Shown here: in pieces, positions 24,102-47,448 of the stretch | Layout of the letters: the number at the start of each line of letters is the position of its first letter | Position numbering within the stretch: the stretch's first letter is position 1 | Source: Pseudomonadota bacterium | GTDB lineage: Bacteria > Pseudomonadota > Gammaproteobacteria > Enterobacterales > JBCCZV01 | NCBI GenBank assembly: GCA_039187085.1 | Contig: JBCCZV010000005.1 | Span: 1-62,279 of the forward strand | Reading direction: 5' to 3' | Length of the DNA stretch: 62,279 nucleotides | Translations under genes and position numbers: made by a program | Notes under the pieces: generated by a model | Seen by the model: the letters and a program-made list of their open reading frames with translations, nothing else | What the model was told of the DNA's origin: nothing | Database searches by the model: none

Positions 24102-25220
24102 ATGGCTAAACGAGACTATTACGAAGCGCTTGGCGTATCAAAATCCGCCTCGCAAGATGACATTAAGAAAGCCTATCGTAAGATGGCAATGAAGTTCCAC
24201 CCCGATCGCAATACTGACGATCCAGAAAAAGCGGAGGAACAGTTTAAGGAAGTTAAAGAAGCTTACGAAGTCCTTTCCAACTCAGAAAAACGTGCCATGT
24301 ACGATCAATACGGCCATGCCGGTGTCGATCCTTCTATGGGTGGTGGAGCGCATGGTGCAGGCGGTGCTAGCTTCAGTGATATTTTTGGTGATGTGTTTGG
24401 AGACATCTTTGGTGGTTCGCGCGGTGGTGGGCGTTCACAACGTGGGGCTGATTTACGCTACAATATGGAGCTGACTCTAGAAGAAGCCGTACGAGGTGTC
24501 AGCAAAAAAATTAATATTCCTAAATATGACCAGTGTAATACGTGTAATGGTACTGGTGCAAAAAAAGGCACCTCGCCAGTAACCTGTACGACCTGTGGTG
24601 GTAGTGGCCAAGTACGTATACAGCAAGGTTTTTTCTCTATCCAACAAACCTGTCCCCAGTGTCGCGGTCAAGGAAAGATAATCAAAGATCCTTGTGAAGA
24701 CTGTCATGGTACTGGGCGGGTGAAAACCGAAAAAGTACTTTCAGTAAAAATTCCGCCAGGAGTTGATACTGGGGATCGTATACGTCTTTCGGGTGAGGGT
24801 GAAGCGGGTGGTCCAGGTACGCAACCCGGTGATTTATATGTACAGGTTGTGGTGCGAGATCATGAGATCTTTACGCGTGATGGTGATAATCTTTTCTGTG
24901 AAGTGCCGATTGGCTTTACAACAGCGGCTTTAGGTGGTGAGCTTGAAGTGCCTACTTTAGAAGGCCGAGTAAACTTAAAAGTACCTCAGGAAACCCAGAG
25001 TGGTAAAATATTCCGCCTCAGAGGTAAGGGTGTAGCCCCGATGCGCGGCGGTGCTGCAGGAGATTTATTATGTCGAGTGGTTGTTGAAACCCCAGTTAAT
25101 TTGTCGCAAAAACAAAAGAATATTCTCAAGGACTTTGAAAATAGCTTATCTGAAAAACCCGACAAACATAACCCGCGCGTTAAAAGCTGGTTTGATGGTG
25201 TCAAATCTTTTTTTGAATAG
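24102..25220 (+). CDS. dnaJ: Co-chaperone DnaJ
   Basis: J-domain with HPDRN, a G/F-rich region, and four CxxCxGxG zinc-finger repeats ([32 protein letters not shown]). Confidence 0.98.
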
Positions 25221-25252: not shown

Positions 25253-25283
25253 ATGAAGCCTTAGCCTAGGCTTCATAACTTTT
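25253..25283 (+). terminator. Possible terminator after dnaJ
   Basis: atgaagcc-(8 nt)-ggcttcat followed by aacttttctc. The U-tract is weak. Confidence 0.4.
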
Positions 25284-25403: not shown

Positions 25404-26204
25404 ATGTCGATAAACTCTCCAATTCGTGTTGGAATTACGGGAGCCAGTGGCCGCATGGGACGTGCCGTAGAAACTGCGGTTGTTGAAAGTGCAGATACTA
25501 AAGTAGGCGCATTGTTTTTACGAGCAGGCCACGAACAGTTGGGTGGAAAATCGATGATCAGTGAGTGCACTTATATGACCGCTGAGTCTGAAAGGCTTGT
25601 CGAAAAAGTAGATATTGTGATTGACTTTTCGTTGCCTGAAAATGCTTTGAATATGGTTAAGCTTTGTGAAAACGCGGGTGTCCCTATTGTCATTGGCACA
25701 ACGGGTTTTAATAAAGAGCAAGAGGCGGAATTACAAGTTGCCAGTCAAAAAATTCCGCTTCTTTTTTCAGCAAATATGAGTGTTGGAGTCAACGCGACTT
25801 ATGCTTTATTGAGAAAAGCTGCCGAACTCTTAGGCACAGAGTGGGATATTGAACTGACGGAAGCACACCACAAACATAAACGCGATACTCCCTCAGGAAC
25901 AGCACTTGCTATGGCCAAGGAAATTGCGACGACATTAAATTGGGATCCCGACGAAGCGTTTAATACCGATAGAGCGACAGAGCAATGTGAACGTAAGCCA
26001 CATCAAATTGGTTTTTCTGTTATTAGAGCAGGAGATATTGTTGGCGAGCACAGCGTTTTGTTTGCTGGTAAGCATGAACGTATTACCATTGGCCATAAAG
26101 CACACTCTCGTTCTGTTTTTGCAGAAGGCAGCGTCGTGGCTGCAAAATACCTGGTTGGACAAGGAGTAGGTTTCTACACAATGAAAGAAGTGTTGGGCTT
26201 GTAA
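25404..26204 (+). CDS. dapB: 4-hydroxy-tetrahydrodipicolinate reductase
   Basis: IRVGITGASGRMGR (NAD(P) fold), EAHHKHKRDTPSGTA, SVIRAGDIVGEH.V.F. Confidence 0.95.
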   Translation: MSINSPIRVGITGASGRMGRAVETAVVESADTKVGALFLRAGHEQLGGKSMISECTYMTAESERLVEKVDIVIDFSLPENALNMVKLCENAGVPIVIGTTGFNKEQEAELQVASQKIPLLFSANMSVGVNATYALLRKAAELLGTEWDIELTEAHHKHKRDTPSGTALAMAKEIATTLNWDPDEAFNTDRATEQCERKPHQIGFSVIRAGDIVGEHSVLFAGKHERITIGHKAHSRSVFAEGSVVAAKYLVGQGVGFYTMKEVLGL

Positions 26205-26424
26205 GCCATTTCCTACACAAGTTGTAAGTATGCTGCCCGACTTGTGGGGTATAAATACTGAAAATAATGCACGAAAACACACATTACGTCATATGATAAA
26301 CTCCATAAGTTCTTGATTATCAATAGTAAAGGCGGATGAGCAAATTTTATGCTCTCAGAAAATGTCGCAAGGTTCGTAGTAACCTATCTTGTCAATCATT
26401 GGTGATAGTTTAATCTAAACCTAT

Positions 26425-26792
26425 CGAAGCGGCACGGATGCAGCTAAGGAAGAACAAAGTCCACGGAGTGGACACCAAGGATAAAATGATAATAACAATT
26501 TTTGATGGACTTCCAAGGTCGGATAAAAACTTCTTAGGATGAGAAGTCAACATGGACGAGAACAACACATCAATGGATTGAGTGGGAAAGGGATAGTGAG
26601 CCAAAGGAAATGGCTTCAAGGATGATAAGGAAAATACTGAGCACTAGGATTGTGCATTAATAAAGCTTCGGGGAATCAGAGTAAAAGGATGTTGACTATT
26701 CCACAGTGACGTGGAGTGCCCAGGATGGGAACACAGCAAAGGAAAAACTTATGCTAGTGAAGGAGAGGTATCTCTCCTTCATGAAGTTTTTT
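26425..26792 (+). ncRNA. CsrB/RsmB-family (CsrA/RsmA-sequestering) sRNA candidate
   Basis: By eye, 23 GGA trinucleotides on the + strand lie between 26436 and 26764, many in CsrA-type contexts (cacGGAtg, caaGGAta, ttaGGAtga, caaGGAtga, aaaGGAtg, caGGAtgg). Several sit in short hairpin loops, for example gtccac-GGA-gtggac at 26460-74, ttct-taGGAtg-agaa and gcac-taGGAtt-gtgc. The 3' hairpin tgaaggagag-gtat-ctctccttca (26758-81) is followed by a T6 run (26787-92). The 5' end is approximate. Confidence 0.65.
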
Positions 26793-27029
26793 CTTATTCA
26801 TCATTGTCTTCACAAAATTTTCTCCATACTAAACTTTCAGCTTATGTCAGTAGTGGACACATTCTCGTTGATAGCATAAAATTACTCTCCAGCCAATGAT
26901 GTGGTTGTCGCCGGTTCTGTACACCGAATGAGACCCATTCCTTAGTATGTATCTTTTAATTCCACAATCTCAATGTTAGAGGGTAATGACCTTTGACTGA
27001 GTTTTACGCACGTCTTTTTGGAGGGTCGC

Positions 27030-28154
27030 TTGAATAAACCAGCAGTGTTAGTGTTGGAAGATGGTAGTGTTTTTCACGGAACGTCAATGGGTGCCAATGG
27101 AAATTCTGTTGGTGAAGTGGTTTTTAATACTTCGATGACGGGCTATCAAGAAATTATTACCGATCCGTCTTATGCCAAACAAATAGTCACCTTGACTTAT
27201 CCTCATATTGGTAATACCGGAATAAACTCAGAAGATGAAGAGTCTGATAAAACCTGGCTATCGGGGCTTATCATTCGCGATCTTCCTGCTTTAGCATCCA
27301 ATTTTCGAAAAGAAAATGATTTATCCCATTATTTGCAAGAGCGACATATCGTGGCCATTGCAGATATCGACACACGTCGTTTAACACGGCATTTAAGAAC
27401 ACACGGTGCTTTGTCTGGTTGTATATCCACCGACGTTGCTGAAATCTCTGAAGCGTTAAAAAACGCCCAAGCTTTCCCAGGATTAAAAGGCATGGATTTG
27501 GCGCGTTTAGTCACAACATCAGCGCCATATGCTTTTAGCCAGGGTGAATGGTCTTTGGGGCACGGATTTTCTAGCGAAAACGCAAAAAAGTTCAAAGTGG
27601 TTGCTTATGATTTTGGTGTTAAGAAAAATATTTTACGAATGTTAGTTGAACGTGGTGCTGATGTGACAGTGGTTCCAGCCAGTACCTCAGCTGAAGAAGC
27701 ATTAAGTCACCAGCCTGACGGGATTTTTTTATCAAACGGTCCCGGTGATCCTGAACCTTGTGATTACGCGATCGAAGCCATCAAACACTTTTTAGTGCAA
27801 GGCATACCTGTATTTGGTATCTGTCTCGGTCATCAGCTTTTAGCTCTCGCTACGGGGGCAACGACCATGAAAATGAAATTTGGTCATCATGGTGCCAATC
27901 ATCCTGTGAAAGACTTACAAAAGAGCCGAGTGATGATTACTAGCCAAAATCATGGTTTTGCTATTGATGATAAACACATTCCTGATACGTTAGACATTTC
28001 TCATGTCTCTTTGTTTGATGGCACGATTCAAGGGGTTCAACACAAAGAAAAACCCGCCTTTGGTTTTCAAGGACATCCCGAGGCCAGTCCTGGCCCTCAT
28101 GATGCAGCTGAGCTTTTCGATCATTTTTTCAGCCTCATGGATAAGCAAAATTAA
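27030..28154 (+). CDS. carA: Carbamoyl-phosphate synthase small (glutaminase) subunit
   Basis: [18 protein letters not shown]...[20 protein letters not shown] and the GICLGHQLL catalytic Cys. The likely start is TTG 27030, 5 nt after GGAGGG (E. coli carA also uses UUG). The track start is 27018. Confidence 0.95.
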
Positions 28155-28233: not shown

Positions 28234-31200
28234 ATGCCGAAGAGAAGCGACATACAAAGCATATTAATCATTGGTGCCGGACCTATCGTGATAGGCCAAG
28301 CTTGTGAGTTTGATTACTCCGGTGCTCAAGCCTGTAAAGCTCTAAAAGAAGAAGGTTTTAAGGTCATATTGGTTAACTCGAATCCTGCAACCATTATGAC
28401 TGACCCTAACATGGCTGATGTCACTTACATTGAGCCTATCCAATGGGATATTGTTGAAAAAATTATAGAAAAAGAGCGCCCAGATGCGATTTTACCCACC
28501 ATGGGTGGACAAACCGCATTAAATTGTGCACTCGATTTAGCCAAACATGGTGTGCTTGAGAAATTTGGCGTCACGATGATTGGCGCGACAAAGGAAGCGA
28601 TCGATAAAGCGGAAGATCGTGAAAAATTTGCTAAAGCGATGAAGAAGCTTGGCTTAGATATGCCAAAAGCTGGGTTAGCACACTCTATGGATGAGTCATT
28701 AGCCGTACTGGATAAAATCGGCTTTCCATGTATCATCCGCCCTTCATTCACTATGGGTGGAACCGGCGGTGGTATCGCTTACAACCGCGAAGAATTTATC
28801 GAAATCTGCGAAAGAGGTTTAGATCTATCTCCGACAAGTGAGCTCTTAATTGATGAATCCTTGATCGGTTGGAAAGAGTATGAAATGGAAGTGGTCCGTG
28901 ATAAAAACGACAATTGCATTATCGTTTGTTCTATCGAAAACTTTGACCCTATGGGTGTGCATACAGGGGATTCAATCACTGTCGCACCAGCACAAACTTT
29001 AACGGATAAAGAATACCAAATCATGCGTAATGCTTCTATGGAGGTATTGCGTGAAATTGGTGTAGAAACAGGCGGTTCAAACGTGCAATTTGCCGTTAAT
29101 CCTGAAAATGGTCGCATGGTTGTTATCGAAATGAACCCACGTGTTTCGCGCTCATCAGCTTTGGCTTCAAAAGCGACGGGTTTTCCTATCGCAAAAGTTG
29201 CGGCGAAACTGGCTGTGGGTTATACATTGGATGAACTGCAAAATGATATCACTTCTGGTAAAACCCCAGCTTCTTTCGAGCCGAGTATCGATTATGTGGT
29301 AACAAAAATTCCGCGCTTTAACTTCGAAAAATTTCCCAATAGTGATGCTACTTTAACCACGCAAATGAAGTCTGTGGGCGAAGTCATGGCAATTGGTCGA
29401 ACTTTCCAAGAGTCCATGCAAAAAGCAATTCGTGGCTTGGAAGTGGGTATGACAGGTTTTGATGAAGTCGGCGATACCGATATCGAGAATTACAATGATC
29501 AATTGAAAAGTCATTTGTTAGTACCTGGAGCGCATCGTTTATGGTGGATAGGCCAAGCGTTTCGACAAGGGTTTACACGTGATGATGTACATAAACTGAC
29601 TTTGATCGAACCTTGGTTTCTGGTTCAATTAGAAGAGTTAATTCAGCTTGAACAAGAAGTAAAAAAACAAGGCGTGTCGGGTTTGACGGCACCATTTTTG
29701 CGATATTTAAAACGTAAAGGGTTTTCCGATGCGCGTTTGGGCGCTTTAGTTGATACAACGGAGCGTGCTATTCGCCAGCGTCGGATCAACTACGGAATTT
29801 TTCCAGTCTACAAACGTGTTGACACCTGTGCTGCCGAATTCTCTACCAGTACTGCTTATATGTATTCCACCTATGAAGAAGAGTGTGAAGCGGAACCCAC
29901 AGAAAAAGATAAAGTTATTATTTTAGGTGGAGGCCCGAATCGCATTGGTCAGGGTATCGAGTTTGATTATTGCTGTGTGCACGCTGCTTTAGCGTTACGC
30001 GAAGATGGTTATGAAACCATCATGATTAATTGTAACCCTGAAACAGTATCAACAGATTACGATACTTCCGATCGTTTGTACTTTGAACCAGTGACTTTAG
30101 AAGATGTTCTCGAAATTGTTCGTGTTGAAAAACCTAAAGGTGTTATTGTGCACTATGGTGGACAAACGCCGTTAAAGTTATCCATTTCGTTGGAAGCAGC
30201 GGGTGTTCCCATTGTTGGCACATCACCGGATGCTATCGATCGTGCGGAAGACAGAGAAAGATTCAAAAAAGTTATCGATAAATTAGGATTGAAGCAACCG
30301 CCTAATCGGACTGTACGTAGCGTTGATGAAGCAATGGTCATGGCCAAGGAAATTGGTTATCCATTAGTTGTTAGGCCGTCTTATGTGCTAGGTGGTCGGG
30401 CGATGGAAATCGTTTATAACGACGATGAACTACGTAACTACATGAAAGATGCGGTTTCTGTTTCCCACGAATCCCCTGTGTTATTAGATCGCTTTTTAAA
30501 TGATGCTATCGAAGTGGATATTGATGCGATTTATGACGGCAACCAAATATTATTAGGTGGTATCATGGAACATATAGAACAGGCGGGAGTTCACTCTGGT
30601 GACTCGGCCTGCTCTATACCCCCTTACACTTTAAGCATGGCGATGCAGGATCAAATGCGACAACAAATGCAAATGTTAGCTAAAGAGCTTGAAGTTGTGG
30701 GTTTGATGAATGCGCAGTTTGCGATTCAAGGTGATACGATTTATGTGCTGGAAGTTAACCCTCGTGCTTCTCGAACAGTGCCTTTTGTTTCAAAGGCCAC
30801 AGGCTTAGCATTAGCAAAAATTGCTGCAAGGTGTATGATGGGATTTGATTTATCCCAACAAGGTGATTTGCAAGAAAAGATTCCGTCGTACTATTCTGTA
30901 AAAGCTCCTGTTTTTCCCTTTAATAAGTTTCCTGGTTCGGATCCCATTCTAGGGCCAGAAATGAAATCAACAGGTGAAGTGATGGGGGTAGGAATGAACT
31001 TTGGTCAAGCGAGCTTTAAGGCTAAGCTTGGTTCCGGTTCCAATGCACCTAAAGGTGGTAAGGCAATCATTTCTGTTCGCGATGCGGATAAAGGAAGAGT
31101 TGCAGAAGCGGCTCGTAATTTAATCGAGCAAGGGTTTAAGCTTTATGCCACCGATAATACCGCCAAGGTGCTGACAGCAGCGGGTGTTGCTTGCGAACGA

Positions 31201-31446
31201 ATTAATAAAGTTTACGAAGGGCGTCCCCATATTGTTGATATGATTAAAAATGATGAAGCCAGTTACATTGTGAATACAACGGAAGGAAAACAAGCTATCG
31301 CTGACTCCTTTATGATAAGACGTTCAGCGCTACAGCATAATGTGCCCTACACAACGACGCTTAATGGCTGTATAGCCACATGTATGAGCATTCGGGATGA
31401 AGATCGTACACACGTCGTTTCGCTTCAAGAGTTACATAAGAGGTAA
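28234..31446 (+). CDS. carB: Carbamoyl-phosphate synthase large subunit
   Basis: 1070 aa with a duplicated ATP-grasp architecture. [33 protein letters not shown].... Confidence 0.99.
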
Positions 31447-31449
31447 AAA

Positions 31450-31926
31450 ATGCAAAAATTTCCGATGACAGTCAAAGGTGCCGAAGCATTACGTGTCGAG
31501 TTGGAAGAACTAAAAAATGTGATGCGCCCTAAAATTGTTGAAGCCATCGCCGAAGCACGGGCGCACGGTGATCTGAAAGAAAACGCTGAATATCATGCTG
31601 CACGTGAACAACAAGGCTTTACCGAAGGTCGTATCGCTGAGATTGAGGGTAAACTCAGTAATGCTCAAATCATTGACGTCACAAAAATGGATAACGAGGG
31701 TAAAGTGATTTTCGGTGCAACTATTACTTTAACCAAATTAAGTCATGATGAAGAAACAACGTATCGAATTGTCGGTGATGACGAAGCTGATATTAAAGCA
31801 GGTTTACTTTCGGTCAATTCTCCTATAGCGCGTGCAATTATTGGTAAACTTGAAGGTGATGAAGTGACCGTTGCTGCGCCAGGTGGAGAAGTGGTATACG
31901 AAATTTCAGAAGTTGAATATATATAA
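31450..31926 (+). CDS. greA: Transcription elongation factor GreA
   Basis: PMT.KGAE.LR.EL..LK...RP.I...[29 protein letters not shown]. Confidence 0.97.
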
Positions 31927-45945: not shown

Positions 45946-46204
45946 AGATGACCTTCTATTTTTAGTGAATGATGCCTCCCGTTCCAATAGAACTTCGCTC
46001 CCCTTCTTGTTGGATAAATAAAGTTCATGGGTAGCCACCAAACTTTTTTGATAAGTGATTTTTTATGGGGCTGTTAAAATCCCAAAACAACTACATGCTT
46101 TAGAATTAAAAAGCCAACTTCAGCCTACTACAAAAGTTAGATTGTTGTCATGGGTAATTTTTCATATTATTGCTAAATCAATTTAGTGTGCGATAATACC
46201 CGAA

Positions 46205-46510
46205 TGGCATATAGTTTAGATTTCAGGCAAAAGGTGTTTGCCTATAAAAGAAAAGCACCAACTGACTTACGAAGAAACTAGCGAACATTTTGAGGTTAAC
46301 ATAAGCACCTTGTTTCGCTGAAATAATAAGCTCACCAGTTCAAACGATTGTAACCGAAGTGCTAATAAAGTAGATGATGAAAGTGGTTTCGCACAAAGCA
46401 TGCCAAGGAAATACGGCTATTCTGCGTTAGGAAAACGCTGCTATGTAAGTCATGATTGGCACGCGAAAGCGAGAGTCAATGCCATCGGGGCCATTATGGA
46501 CATGACCTAA
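46205..46510 (+). pseudogene. Degraded IS630-family transposase gene (frameshifted and internally deleted)
   Basis: Starts MAYSLDFRQKVFAYK (compare the IS630-family N-terminus MAYS.DFR.KV). A frameshift is followed by LTYEETSEHFEVNISTLFR, a stop, then a distant fragment PRKYGYSALGKRCYVSHDWHAKARVNAIGAI. The total is about 100 codons against about 340 in an intact copy. No terminal inverted repeats identified. Confidence 0.7.
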
Positions 46511-46713
46511 TGGCTGATAAAAAGTTTACTTATTTCGAGAATGACGTCTTAATTTATGAAGGTCAACACACTATTCAATTTAAATCTAATGCCTATGTTT
46601 ATAAAGCTGCTTTGAAAGATCTGGAAGCACCACCGCAAACTGAAAAACAGCTTTCACAATTTAAACAGGTAAATCTGTTTGCAATCAATAGGCTAATGAA
46701 AAGCCAATTATAG
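46510..46713 (+). CDS. Possible small hypothetical protein (67 aa)
   Basis: The ATG overlaps the stop of the transposase remnant. MADKKFTYFENDVLIYEGQHTIQF.... No family recognised, so this may not be a real gene. Confidence 0.25.
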   Translation: MADKKFTYFENDVLIYEGQHTIQFKSNAYVYKAALKDLEAPPQTEKQLSQFKQVNLFAINRLMKSQL

Positions 46714-46767
46714 ATTTTTAGTCAATACATTAAGTGATTGTACTTTTTAAAAGGATTCCTTGTAAGT

Positions 46768-47448
46768 TCACTCTAACAATTTTTGAATGATAGTAAAATC
46801 TATGTAATCATCTGCCCATTGGGCGTGACTTAGGCGGGGTAAAGTGCCCAAGAGCGGCGCATCCAGTTTGCTTTCTAATGTCGCAATATTTTCATCGATA
46901 CAATCTGCCGAGCTATCAATGCGGTTAGCAATCCATCCTGCAAACTTTAAGGGAGTTTGTGCGATTCTGGCTTGTGTGAGTAATGCGTGATTTAAACAAC
47001 CCAATTTGATGGGCACGACTAAAATAACAGGGAAGTTTAAGGCAATCGCTAAGTCTTCGAAAGTTTCCTTATCATTAATCGGAACAAGCCATCCACCAAC
47101 GCCTTCAACGATTCGTGGTTGATCACCGGTAAAAGAACAAACCAAATTTTGTTTTATAGTACGAACTGTCATCTTTACATGTCGGCGTTCTGCTGCGATA
47201 TGAGGAGCAATGGCTTCAGGAAAACACAGTGGATTAGTCGCTTCATAAGACTGTTCCAAAGCCGAGGCGTTTTGAAGCTCGCGCGCATCGTCGTTTTGCC
47301 AACGGTTATCAATCCATTGTGCTCCAGAAGCAACGGGTTTATGCCCAAAGCAATGAATGCCGCGTTTCGCCAAGCCACGTAAGATGACTGATGTGCAAAA
47401 TGTTTTACCAGCATCCGTGTCAGTTGCGGTGATGAACAAACCTTTCAT
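46768..47448 (-). CDS. bioD: Dethiobiotin synthase
   Basis: MKGLFITATDTDAGKTF (P-loop), ...IVEGVGGW.VP. It is the last gene of the bio operon. Confidence 0.9.
   Translation of the reverse strand: MKGLFITATDTDAGKTFCTSVILRGLAKRGIHCFGHKPVASGAQWIDNRWQNDDARELQNASALEQSYEATNPLCFPEAIAPHIAAERRHVKMTVRTIKQNLVCSFTGDQPRIVEGVGGWLVPINDKETFEDLAIALNFPVILVVPIKLGCLNHALLTQARIAQTPLKFAGWIANRIDSSADCIDENIATLESKLDAPLLGTLPRLSHAQWADDYIDFTIIQKLLE

Follow-up and report, generated by a model that had tools for sequence, protein, structure and literature searches.

Gene organization of the dapB-carA region

The stretch of DNA analyzed here, referred to as the window, comprises 62,279 nt of contig JBCCZV010000005.1 (assembly GCA_039187085.1), and all window statistics given below cover these 62 kb. 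Its + strand encodes dnaK, dnaJ, dapB, carA, carB and greA in that order, and the region between dapB and carA holds a candidate decoy RNA of the Csr/Rsm type together with its putative control elements (Table 1). The dapB-carA spacer measures 813 to 825 bp, in agreement with the length of about 800 bp given in a preliminary description of this DNA. The range is set by two carA starts, a TTG at 27030 with a GGAGG Shine-Dalgarno sequence and the mechanical ORF start at 27018. The TTG start is kept in the window, in the Kangiellaceae loci described below and in two unrelated gammaproteobacterial contigs (L039 and L041).

Table 1. Genes and predicted features between dnaJ and greA (window coordinates)
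Feature	Position	Strand	Basis or remark
dnaJ	24102-25220	+	
dapB (4-hydroxy-tetrahydrodipicolinate reductase), upstream neighbor	25404-26204	+	Pfam DapB_N/DapB_C on the identical Logan copy
18-nt inverted repeat TGTAAGCCATTTCCTACA, candidate UvrY/GacA site (upstream activating sequence)	26200-26217		overlaps the dapB stop codon
Additional half-site TGTAAGTAT, TGTAAG type	26223-26231	+	read from sequence; 5 bp 3′ of the inverted repeat
IHF-consensus match AATCAAGAACTTA, between repeat and promoter	26306-26318	-	exact match; weak, inferred
Predicted σ70 promoter TTGTCA-N16-TAATCT	26389-26416	+	read from sequence
Candidate Csr/Rsm-type decoy RNA, ~370 nt, 23 GGA	~26423-26792	+	5′ end predicted, ± a few nt
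Intrinsic terminator: stem 26757-26782 (11 bp, 5 G-C), 4-nt GTAT loop, GAAG, T6 at 26787-26792	26757-26792	+	
Separate carA promoter TGGACA-N17-TAAAAT, 3′ of the RNA terminator	26854-26882	+	promoter scan, 10/12 matches
carA (carbamoyl-phosphate synthase small subunit), downstream neighbor	27030-28154	+	TTG start
carB	28234-31446	+	
greA	31450-31926	+	

Among 5.8 billion clustered proteins, the best matches reach at most 48% identity for DapB and at most 70% for CarA, and the top CarA matches are scattered across Alteromonadales, Cellvibrionales, Ferrimonas and Kangiella. The window proteins are equally distant from Kangiellaceae and from other Gammaproteobacteria. On protein sequence, the source organism is a deep-branching gammaproteobacterium without a cultured or sequenced close relative. 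An identical-protein look-up found a second copy of the locus on one contig only (Logan SRR22824305), whose spacer is 100% identical and therefore offers no variation to analyze. Rfam at gathering score assigned zero families across all 62 kb, with no tRNA, rRNA or riboswitch. A tblastn search of the same 62 kb with E. coli CsrA gave no match, and the ten window proteins scanned with NCBIfam included no barA- or uvrY-like gene.

Density and context of GGA motifs

The + strand of positions 26425-26792 contains exactly 23 GGA triplets (first at 26436, last at 26762), the number that had been counted by hand, vs. four on the opposite strand. Averaged over the window, a 368-nt segment has 3.35 GGA, and outside this position no such segment holds more than 9. 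An expectation of 4-5 triplets had been put forward earlier; it is about right for the window average but too low for the local composition. As the segment is purine-rich, shuffling it (n = 5,000) yields 9.8 ± 2.5 GGA, with no shuffle exceeding 20, and the excess is real by either measure.

The sequence contexts reported in the preliminary description (A(N)GGA, CAGGATG and AAGGATG) were recovered: 17/23 triplets lie in A(N)GGA, 11 in AGGA and 5 in GGATG, although exact CAGGAUG occurs in only one copy and the motifs are mostly AAGGA, UAGGA and AUGGA. Counting AGGA/ARGGA in 240-nt sliding windows gives 16 at this position and 5 at the next-best position on either strand of the 62-kb window. The + strand of 26425-26705 has no ORF that reaches 40 aa, and a Pfam search of the small ORFs of the segment gave no support, in keeping with the earlier view that two small ORFs listed here lack coding support. 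Direct repeats within the RNA are limited to short two-copy matches of 9-15 nt.

Predicted fold and terminator

The segment 26423-26792 folds with a predicted energy of -94.6 kcal/mol, and a slightly longer stretch gives a z-score of -3.3 relative to dinucleotide shuffles. Scoring a GGA as unpaired when at least two of its bases are unpaired in the minimum-energy fold, we find 17/23 triplets unpaired, and 9 lie in hairpin loops. In the ensemble, the mean probability of being unpaired is 0.68 for GGA vs. 0.46 for all triplets (permutation p = 0.0016). Seven well-formed local stem-loops present a GGA (26432-26441, 26459-26473, ~26528-26547, 26570-26581, 26598-26616, 26641-26655 and 26719-26729). 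The second of these is the GTCCAC-GGA-GTGGAC hairpin that had been singled out as an example of a GGA loop, and a further example is GAGCCA-AAGGAAA-TGGCTT at 26598-26616. The 5′ end of the RNA (...GCGGCACGGAUG) forms a hairpin with a CGGA tetraloop. At the 3′ end we recovered the hairpin and T6 noted previously, with a stem of 11 pairs where 10 bp had been counted.

We also observed that AAGCCATTTCCT (26203-26214, where the dapB stop codon and the upstream repeat lie) is complementary over all 12 nt to AGGAAATGGCTT (26605-26616, within the loop and 3′ side of a GGA hairpin). By chance, about 0.01 pairs of this kind would be expected in 650 nt. Inspection of one relative, the Kangiellaceae-like locus L038, shows that its RNA lacks this complementarity.

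Elements upstream of the predicted RNA

The inverted repeat that overlaps the end of dapB has one mismatch relative to TGTAAGN6CTTACA and is centered at about -214 relative to the predicted RNA start. Two sites this close to the consensus occur in the 62 kb, vs. 0.15 expected. Another candidate box, TGAGCAaattttaTGCTCtCA at 26338-26358, was considered initially and set aside, the repeat at 26200 being closer to the consensus.

The second site in the window, TGTAAGTTCACTCTAACA at 46761-46778, also has one mismatch and extends into the 3′ end of bioD (46768-47448, - strand). As neither flank carries a GGA-rich RNA, this box may reflect chance or the control of something else. A 726-bp gap at 46042-46767 has no long ORF and resembles the remains of an IS630-type insertion sequence: its broken reading frames give weak, sub-threshold Pfam matches to DDE_3 (E = 0.088) and to the HTH of the IS630 transposase (E = 0.024).

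Between the repeat and the promoter lies an exact match to the IHF consensus WATCAANNNNTTR. The window contains 16 matches to this consensus vs. 6.3 expected, and because the motif is so common the match at 26306-26318 is weak evidence for an IHF site.

The TTGTCA-N16-TAATCT element places the predicted RNA start near 26423. In a promoter scan its -10 hexamer is weak and falls under threshold; poor -10 elements are common at activator-dependent promoters. Terminator scans found no terminator-like site between the dapB stop codon (26204) and the hairpin at 26757, whereas a terminator-like hairpin follows dnaJ at 25253-25276.

Counterparts downstream of dapB in other genomes

Comparison with relatives, as proposed in the preliminary description, revealed GGA-rich predicted RNAs in the same slot in four lineages and none in seven other loci. 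A Kangiellaceae-like MAG (L038, whose DapB relatives are Kangiellaceae) has a predicted RNA of 122 nt with 7 GGA; Kangiella japonica (L051) one of 121 nt with 6 GGA and a Sel1 gene inserted before carA; another MAG lineage (L057, L058 and L059) one of 203 nt with 14 GGA; and Pleionea sediminis (L060) one of 265 nt with 21 GGA. In all four, the RNA lies directly 3′ of dapB on the same strand, ahead of the carA promoter, and has a terminator at its end, and a TGTAAG-type repeat is found near the dapB stop codon, centered between -175 and -181 from the predicted start. The earlier suggestion that the location may be lineage-specific thus does not hold, as the slot downstream of dapB is also used in Kangiella, Pleionea and two MAG lineages. 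The comparison shows a related, unannotated family of predicted RNAs downstream of dapB in Kangiellaceae.

The upstream elements of these loci resemble those of the window. Their predicted promoters read TTGTTG-N16-TAGTAT (L057), TTGTTC-N16-TAATAT (L060) and TTCCTA-N16-TAATAT (L038), and an alignment identified the 5′ motif GGCACGGA in the window, L038 and L057, with GGCAGGCAACGGA in L060. A repeat consensus built from three Kangiellaceae loci only (L038, L057 and L060), with the window left out, TGTAAGMSATWTC, matches the window once, at 26200, vs. 0.03 matches expected in 62 kb. In Kangiella japonica (positions 1456-1491 of L051) the repeat TGTGAGACATTGACCATT is followed 5 bp on by TGTAGGATA, and the UvrY/SirA repeat of Salmonella csrC is identical to this TGTGAGACATTGACCATT (PMC4682653). 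The identity hints at common ancestry of the csrC-type and dapB-linked promoters or at a strong binding constraint.

The four counterparts match the PrrB_RsmZ model of Rfam over its full length with 32.1 (E = 2e-4), 21.2, 20.1 and 16.3 bits, all short of the gathering score of 44. An nhmmer profile built from the upstream regions of the Kangiellaceae loci matched the window at the repeat only (E = 2.4) and left the RNA body unmatched. A covariance model built from the RNAs of these four lineages picked up terminator hairpins only in the window, with nothing significant. As the RNA body is not alignable, homology between the window and Kangiellaceae loci rests on position and short motifs. Non-alignable RNA bodies are usual among Csr/Rsm RNAs.

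No GGA-rich RNA was found in the best CarA or DapB relatives outside these lineages (L039, L041, L052, L053, L054, L055 and L056); in L053 to L056, other genes stand between dapB and carA or the two do not adjoin on the fetched stretch. A DapB scan of genome contigs returned distant relatives only (30-45% identity, with one partial-length match of 51%), none of which has the RNA; the GGA-dense windows in these distant loci are coding regions or Shine-Dalgarno sequences. A metagenome search with the pattern TGTAAGCCATTTC...GGCACGGA gave 7 matches, which were discarded as unrelated (38-71% G+C, no GGA array).

The promoter upstream of carA is also conserved, TGGACA-N17-TARAAT being present in L038, L057, L060, L039 and L041. 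The Kangiellaceae loci further share a conserved hairpin and T-run just upstream of carA, aaaaagcGGAATCCA...GAATTCCGCttttt (L038, 3925-3975; L057, 3895-3945; L060, 3995-4035), which could be a transcription attenuator of carAB. At the equivalent place, the window has a weak terminator-like site only (26975-26997).

A predicted CsrA-sequestering RNA and its alternatives

We conclude that 26423-26792 is very probably a gene for a CsrB/RsmZ-type RNA that sequesters CsrA. The reading of this segment as a Csr/Rsm-family decoy, proposed in the preliminary description, is supported by all class-defining sequence features, by the upstream repeat and by the counterparts downstream of dapB, although by score the RNA belongs to neither the CsrB nor the RsmZ family of Rfam. 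The observations behind it are the motif density, the strand bias, the predicted exposure of the motifs, the terminator, the layout of the repeat and the counterparts in the same position.

The working of the locus, including transcription, the exact 5′ end and the binding of the regulator, IHF and CsrA, we infer from sequence. A response regulator of the BarA/UvrY (GacS/GacA) type would bind the inverted repeat and the adjacent half-site, the DNA would bend across the AT-rich linker of ~190 bp, possibly through IHF at 26306-26318, and the bound regulator would activate the weak σ70 promoter. Transcription from ~26423 to the terminator at 26792 would yield an RNA of ~370 nt that exposes ~17 GGA motifs, ~7 of them in well-formed hairpin loops and the others in single-stranded linkers. 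These motifs would bind CsrA/RsmA dimers and draw them off their mRNA targets.

The leading alternative differs in the origin of the RNA and not in its function. The RNA could belong to the dapB mRNA as its 3′ untranslated region, processed or not, in which case its level would follow dapB and not a UvrY/GacA signal. Such an origin would fit the weak predicted -10 and the lack of any terminator-like site after dapB ahead of that of the RNA, and it has a parallel in the Pseudomonas aeruginosa sRNA P32, described in the available sections of its report as the final gene in a dnaJ-dapB operon (PMC3902932). We nevertheless regard it as improbable, since a UvrY/GacA-type repeat with a csrB-like layout would have no obvious role there and the -35/N16/-10 arrangement is kept in four loci just 5′ of the conserved 5′ motif. 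Both models could hold at once: because dapB lacks a terminator of its own, read-through from dapB could contribute to the RNA, and its function as a CsrA sponge would be the same in both. Coupling to the heat-shock operon is less likely here, given the terminator-like hairpin after dnaJ.

A regulatory RNA of another kind, whether a base-pairing sRNA, a sponge for a different protein or a carA leader, appears very unlikely. The sub-threshold scores with the Csr/Rsm models of Rfam and the perfect complementarity between 26605-26616 and 26203-26214 would both be consistent with it, but the complementarity is missing from the L038 RNA, and the GGA motifs stand in the A(N)GGA and GGAUG contexts of CsrA binding, in loops and at the density of CsrB. 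The RNA terminator together with the separate, conserved carA promoter at 26854-26882 rules out a carA leader. We attach next to no weight to a non-functional origin, in which a purine-rich spacer, a decayed coding region or a degenerate repeat became GGA-rich by chance. The composition of the segment does by itself predict ~10 GGA; against this, the count of 23 lies above all 5,000 composition-matched shuffles and the opposite strand has only 4. Pfam gives no support to the small ORFs, and direct repeats are confined to pairs of short matches (9-15 nt). Selection is favored by the terminator, by the upstream repeat and by the same-position equivalents in four lineages.

On the preferred reading, that of a CsrB/RsmZ-type decoy, the locus would add a familiar type of regulator in an unstudied lineage and leave the known working of such RNAs unchanged. 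Csr/Rsm decoy RNAs control when many Gammaproteobacteria move between growth and programs of stress, biofilm formation or virulence; they evolve fast, and homology searches miss them outside well-studied groups. A complete CsrB-type module, with UvrY box, bent linker, weak promoter, GGA array and terminator, is predicted here in an isolated lineage; the locus exposes a gap in Rfam-based annotation and supplies sequences for a new covariance model. A more speculative scenario, which we think unlikely, is that the dapB-carA slot has held an Rsm/Csr decoy since before Kangiellaceae split from this lineage, that the RNA grew from RsmZ size (~120 nt, 6-7 GGA) to CsrB size (370 nt, 23 GGA), and that it is made partly by read-through from dapB. 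If so, the slot would offer a natural series for the evolution of decoy capacity, with sizes from 121 to 370 nt, and the titration of CsrA would be tied to the expression of dapB to the extent that read-through makes part of the RNA.

Comparison with known Csr/Rsm systems

Kulkarni et al. (2006) proposed five sequence criteria to define sRNAs that regulate CsrA (PMC1488887). The window RNA shows all five features: an intergenic position, a high density of AGGA/ARGGA, a Rho-independent terminator, repeated GGA motifs in loops or unpaired, and a conserved 18-bp upstream site of the UvrY/GacA type. The Rfam models named in the preliminary description did not recover it. CsrB (RF00018, gathering score 71) gave no match at threshold and at best 11.4 bits (E = 1), and PrrB/RsmZ (RF00166, gathering score 44) left the RNA unmatched at E up to 10. 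In an E-value scan of the spacer, the sole Csr-clan match of the RNA is a 27-nt fragment of CsrB (model positions 252-278), and the other matches are noise. A gathering-threshold scan of L038, L039 and L041 likewise returned nothing.

As a control, we passed E. coli K-12 csrB through the same script as the window RNA. The two are nearly indistinguishable in length (370 nt in the window, 369 in E. coli), in the number of GGA (23 and 22), A(R)GGA matches (20 and 20), GGA unpaired in the minimum-energy fold (17 and 18) and GGA in hairpin loops (9 and 9), and both end in an intrinsic terminator. The likeness extends to the upstream region. In E. coli and Salmonella, csrB is preceded by the 18-nt repeat TGTGAGAGATCTCTTACA, centered at -183/-182, with the partly conserved TGTAGGAGA 5 bp downstream (Zere et al., PMC4682653) and an IHF site between the repeat element and the promoter (PMC4682653). 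We checked this layout of repeat and TGTAGGAGA in the E. coli sequence; the window has the same arrangement of repeat, 5 bp and half-site, at about -214 where E. coli csrB has it at -183. The RNA bodies, in contrast, share no detectable sequence homology, and the flanking genes are yqcC and syd for E. coli csrB and dapB and carA here.

The window locus also shares a GacA-type upstream repeat with RsmZ/PrrB of Pseudomonas, and both the RsmZ consensus and the window RNA open with a small hairpin presenting CGGA, although the window RNA is three times longer than RsmZ. Pseudomonas rsmZ sits between rpoS and fdxA (PMC1488887). The preliminary description knew of no csrB-type locus described between dapB and carA, and literature searches on dapB with csrB, rsmY or GacA found none there; in the tables of Kulkarni et al., where most entries are locus tags only, no named flanking gene is dapB or carA (PMC1488887). 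The sRNA P32 (rgP32) of P. aeruginosa lies downstream of dapB and resembles the window RNA in position only, the available sections of its report not describing it as a GGA-rich CsrA/RsmA decoy (PMC3902932).

A further comparison is Pf1 of Pseudoalteromonas fuliginea, which, according to the available sections of its report, has a terminator, 21 GGA motifs and the GacA box CGTGAGACATCTCTTACA (PMC9927453). A glycogen assay in E. coli as heterologous host led to its being reported as a new Csr sRNA, and homologues were found in Pseudoalteromonas only (PMC9927453). Overexpression in E. coli with glycogen staining was likewise used for V. fischeri CsrB1/2. Pf1 and the window RNA are recognized by the same signs, and Pf1 provides a precedent both for the class of the window RNA and for a route to its validation.
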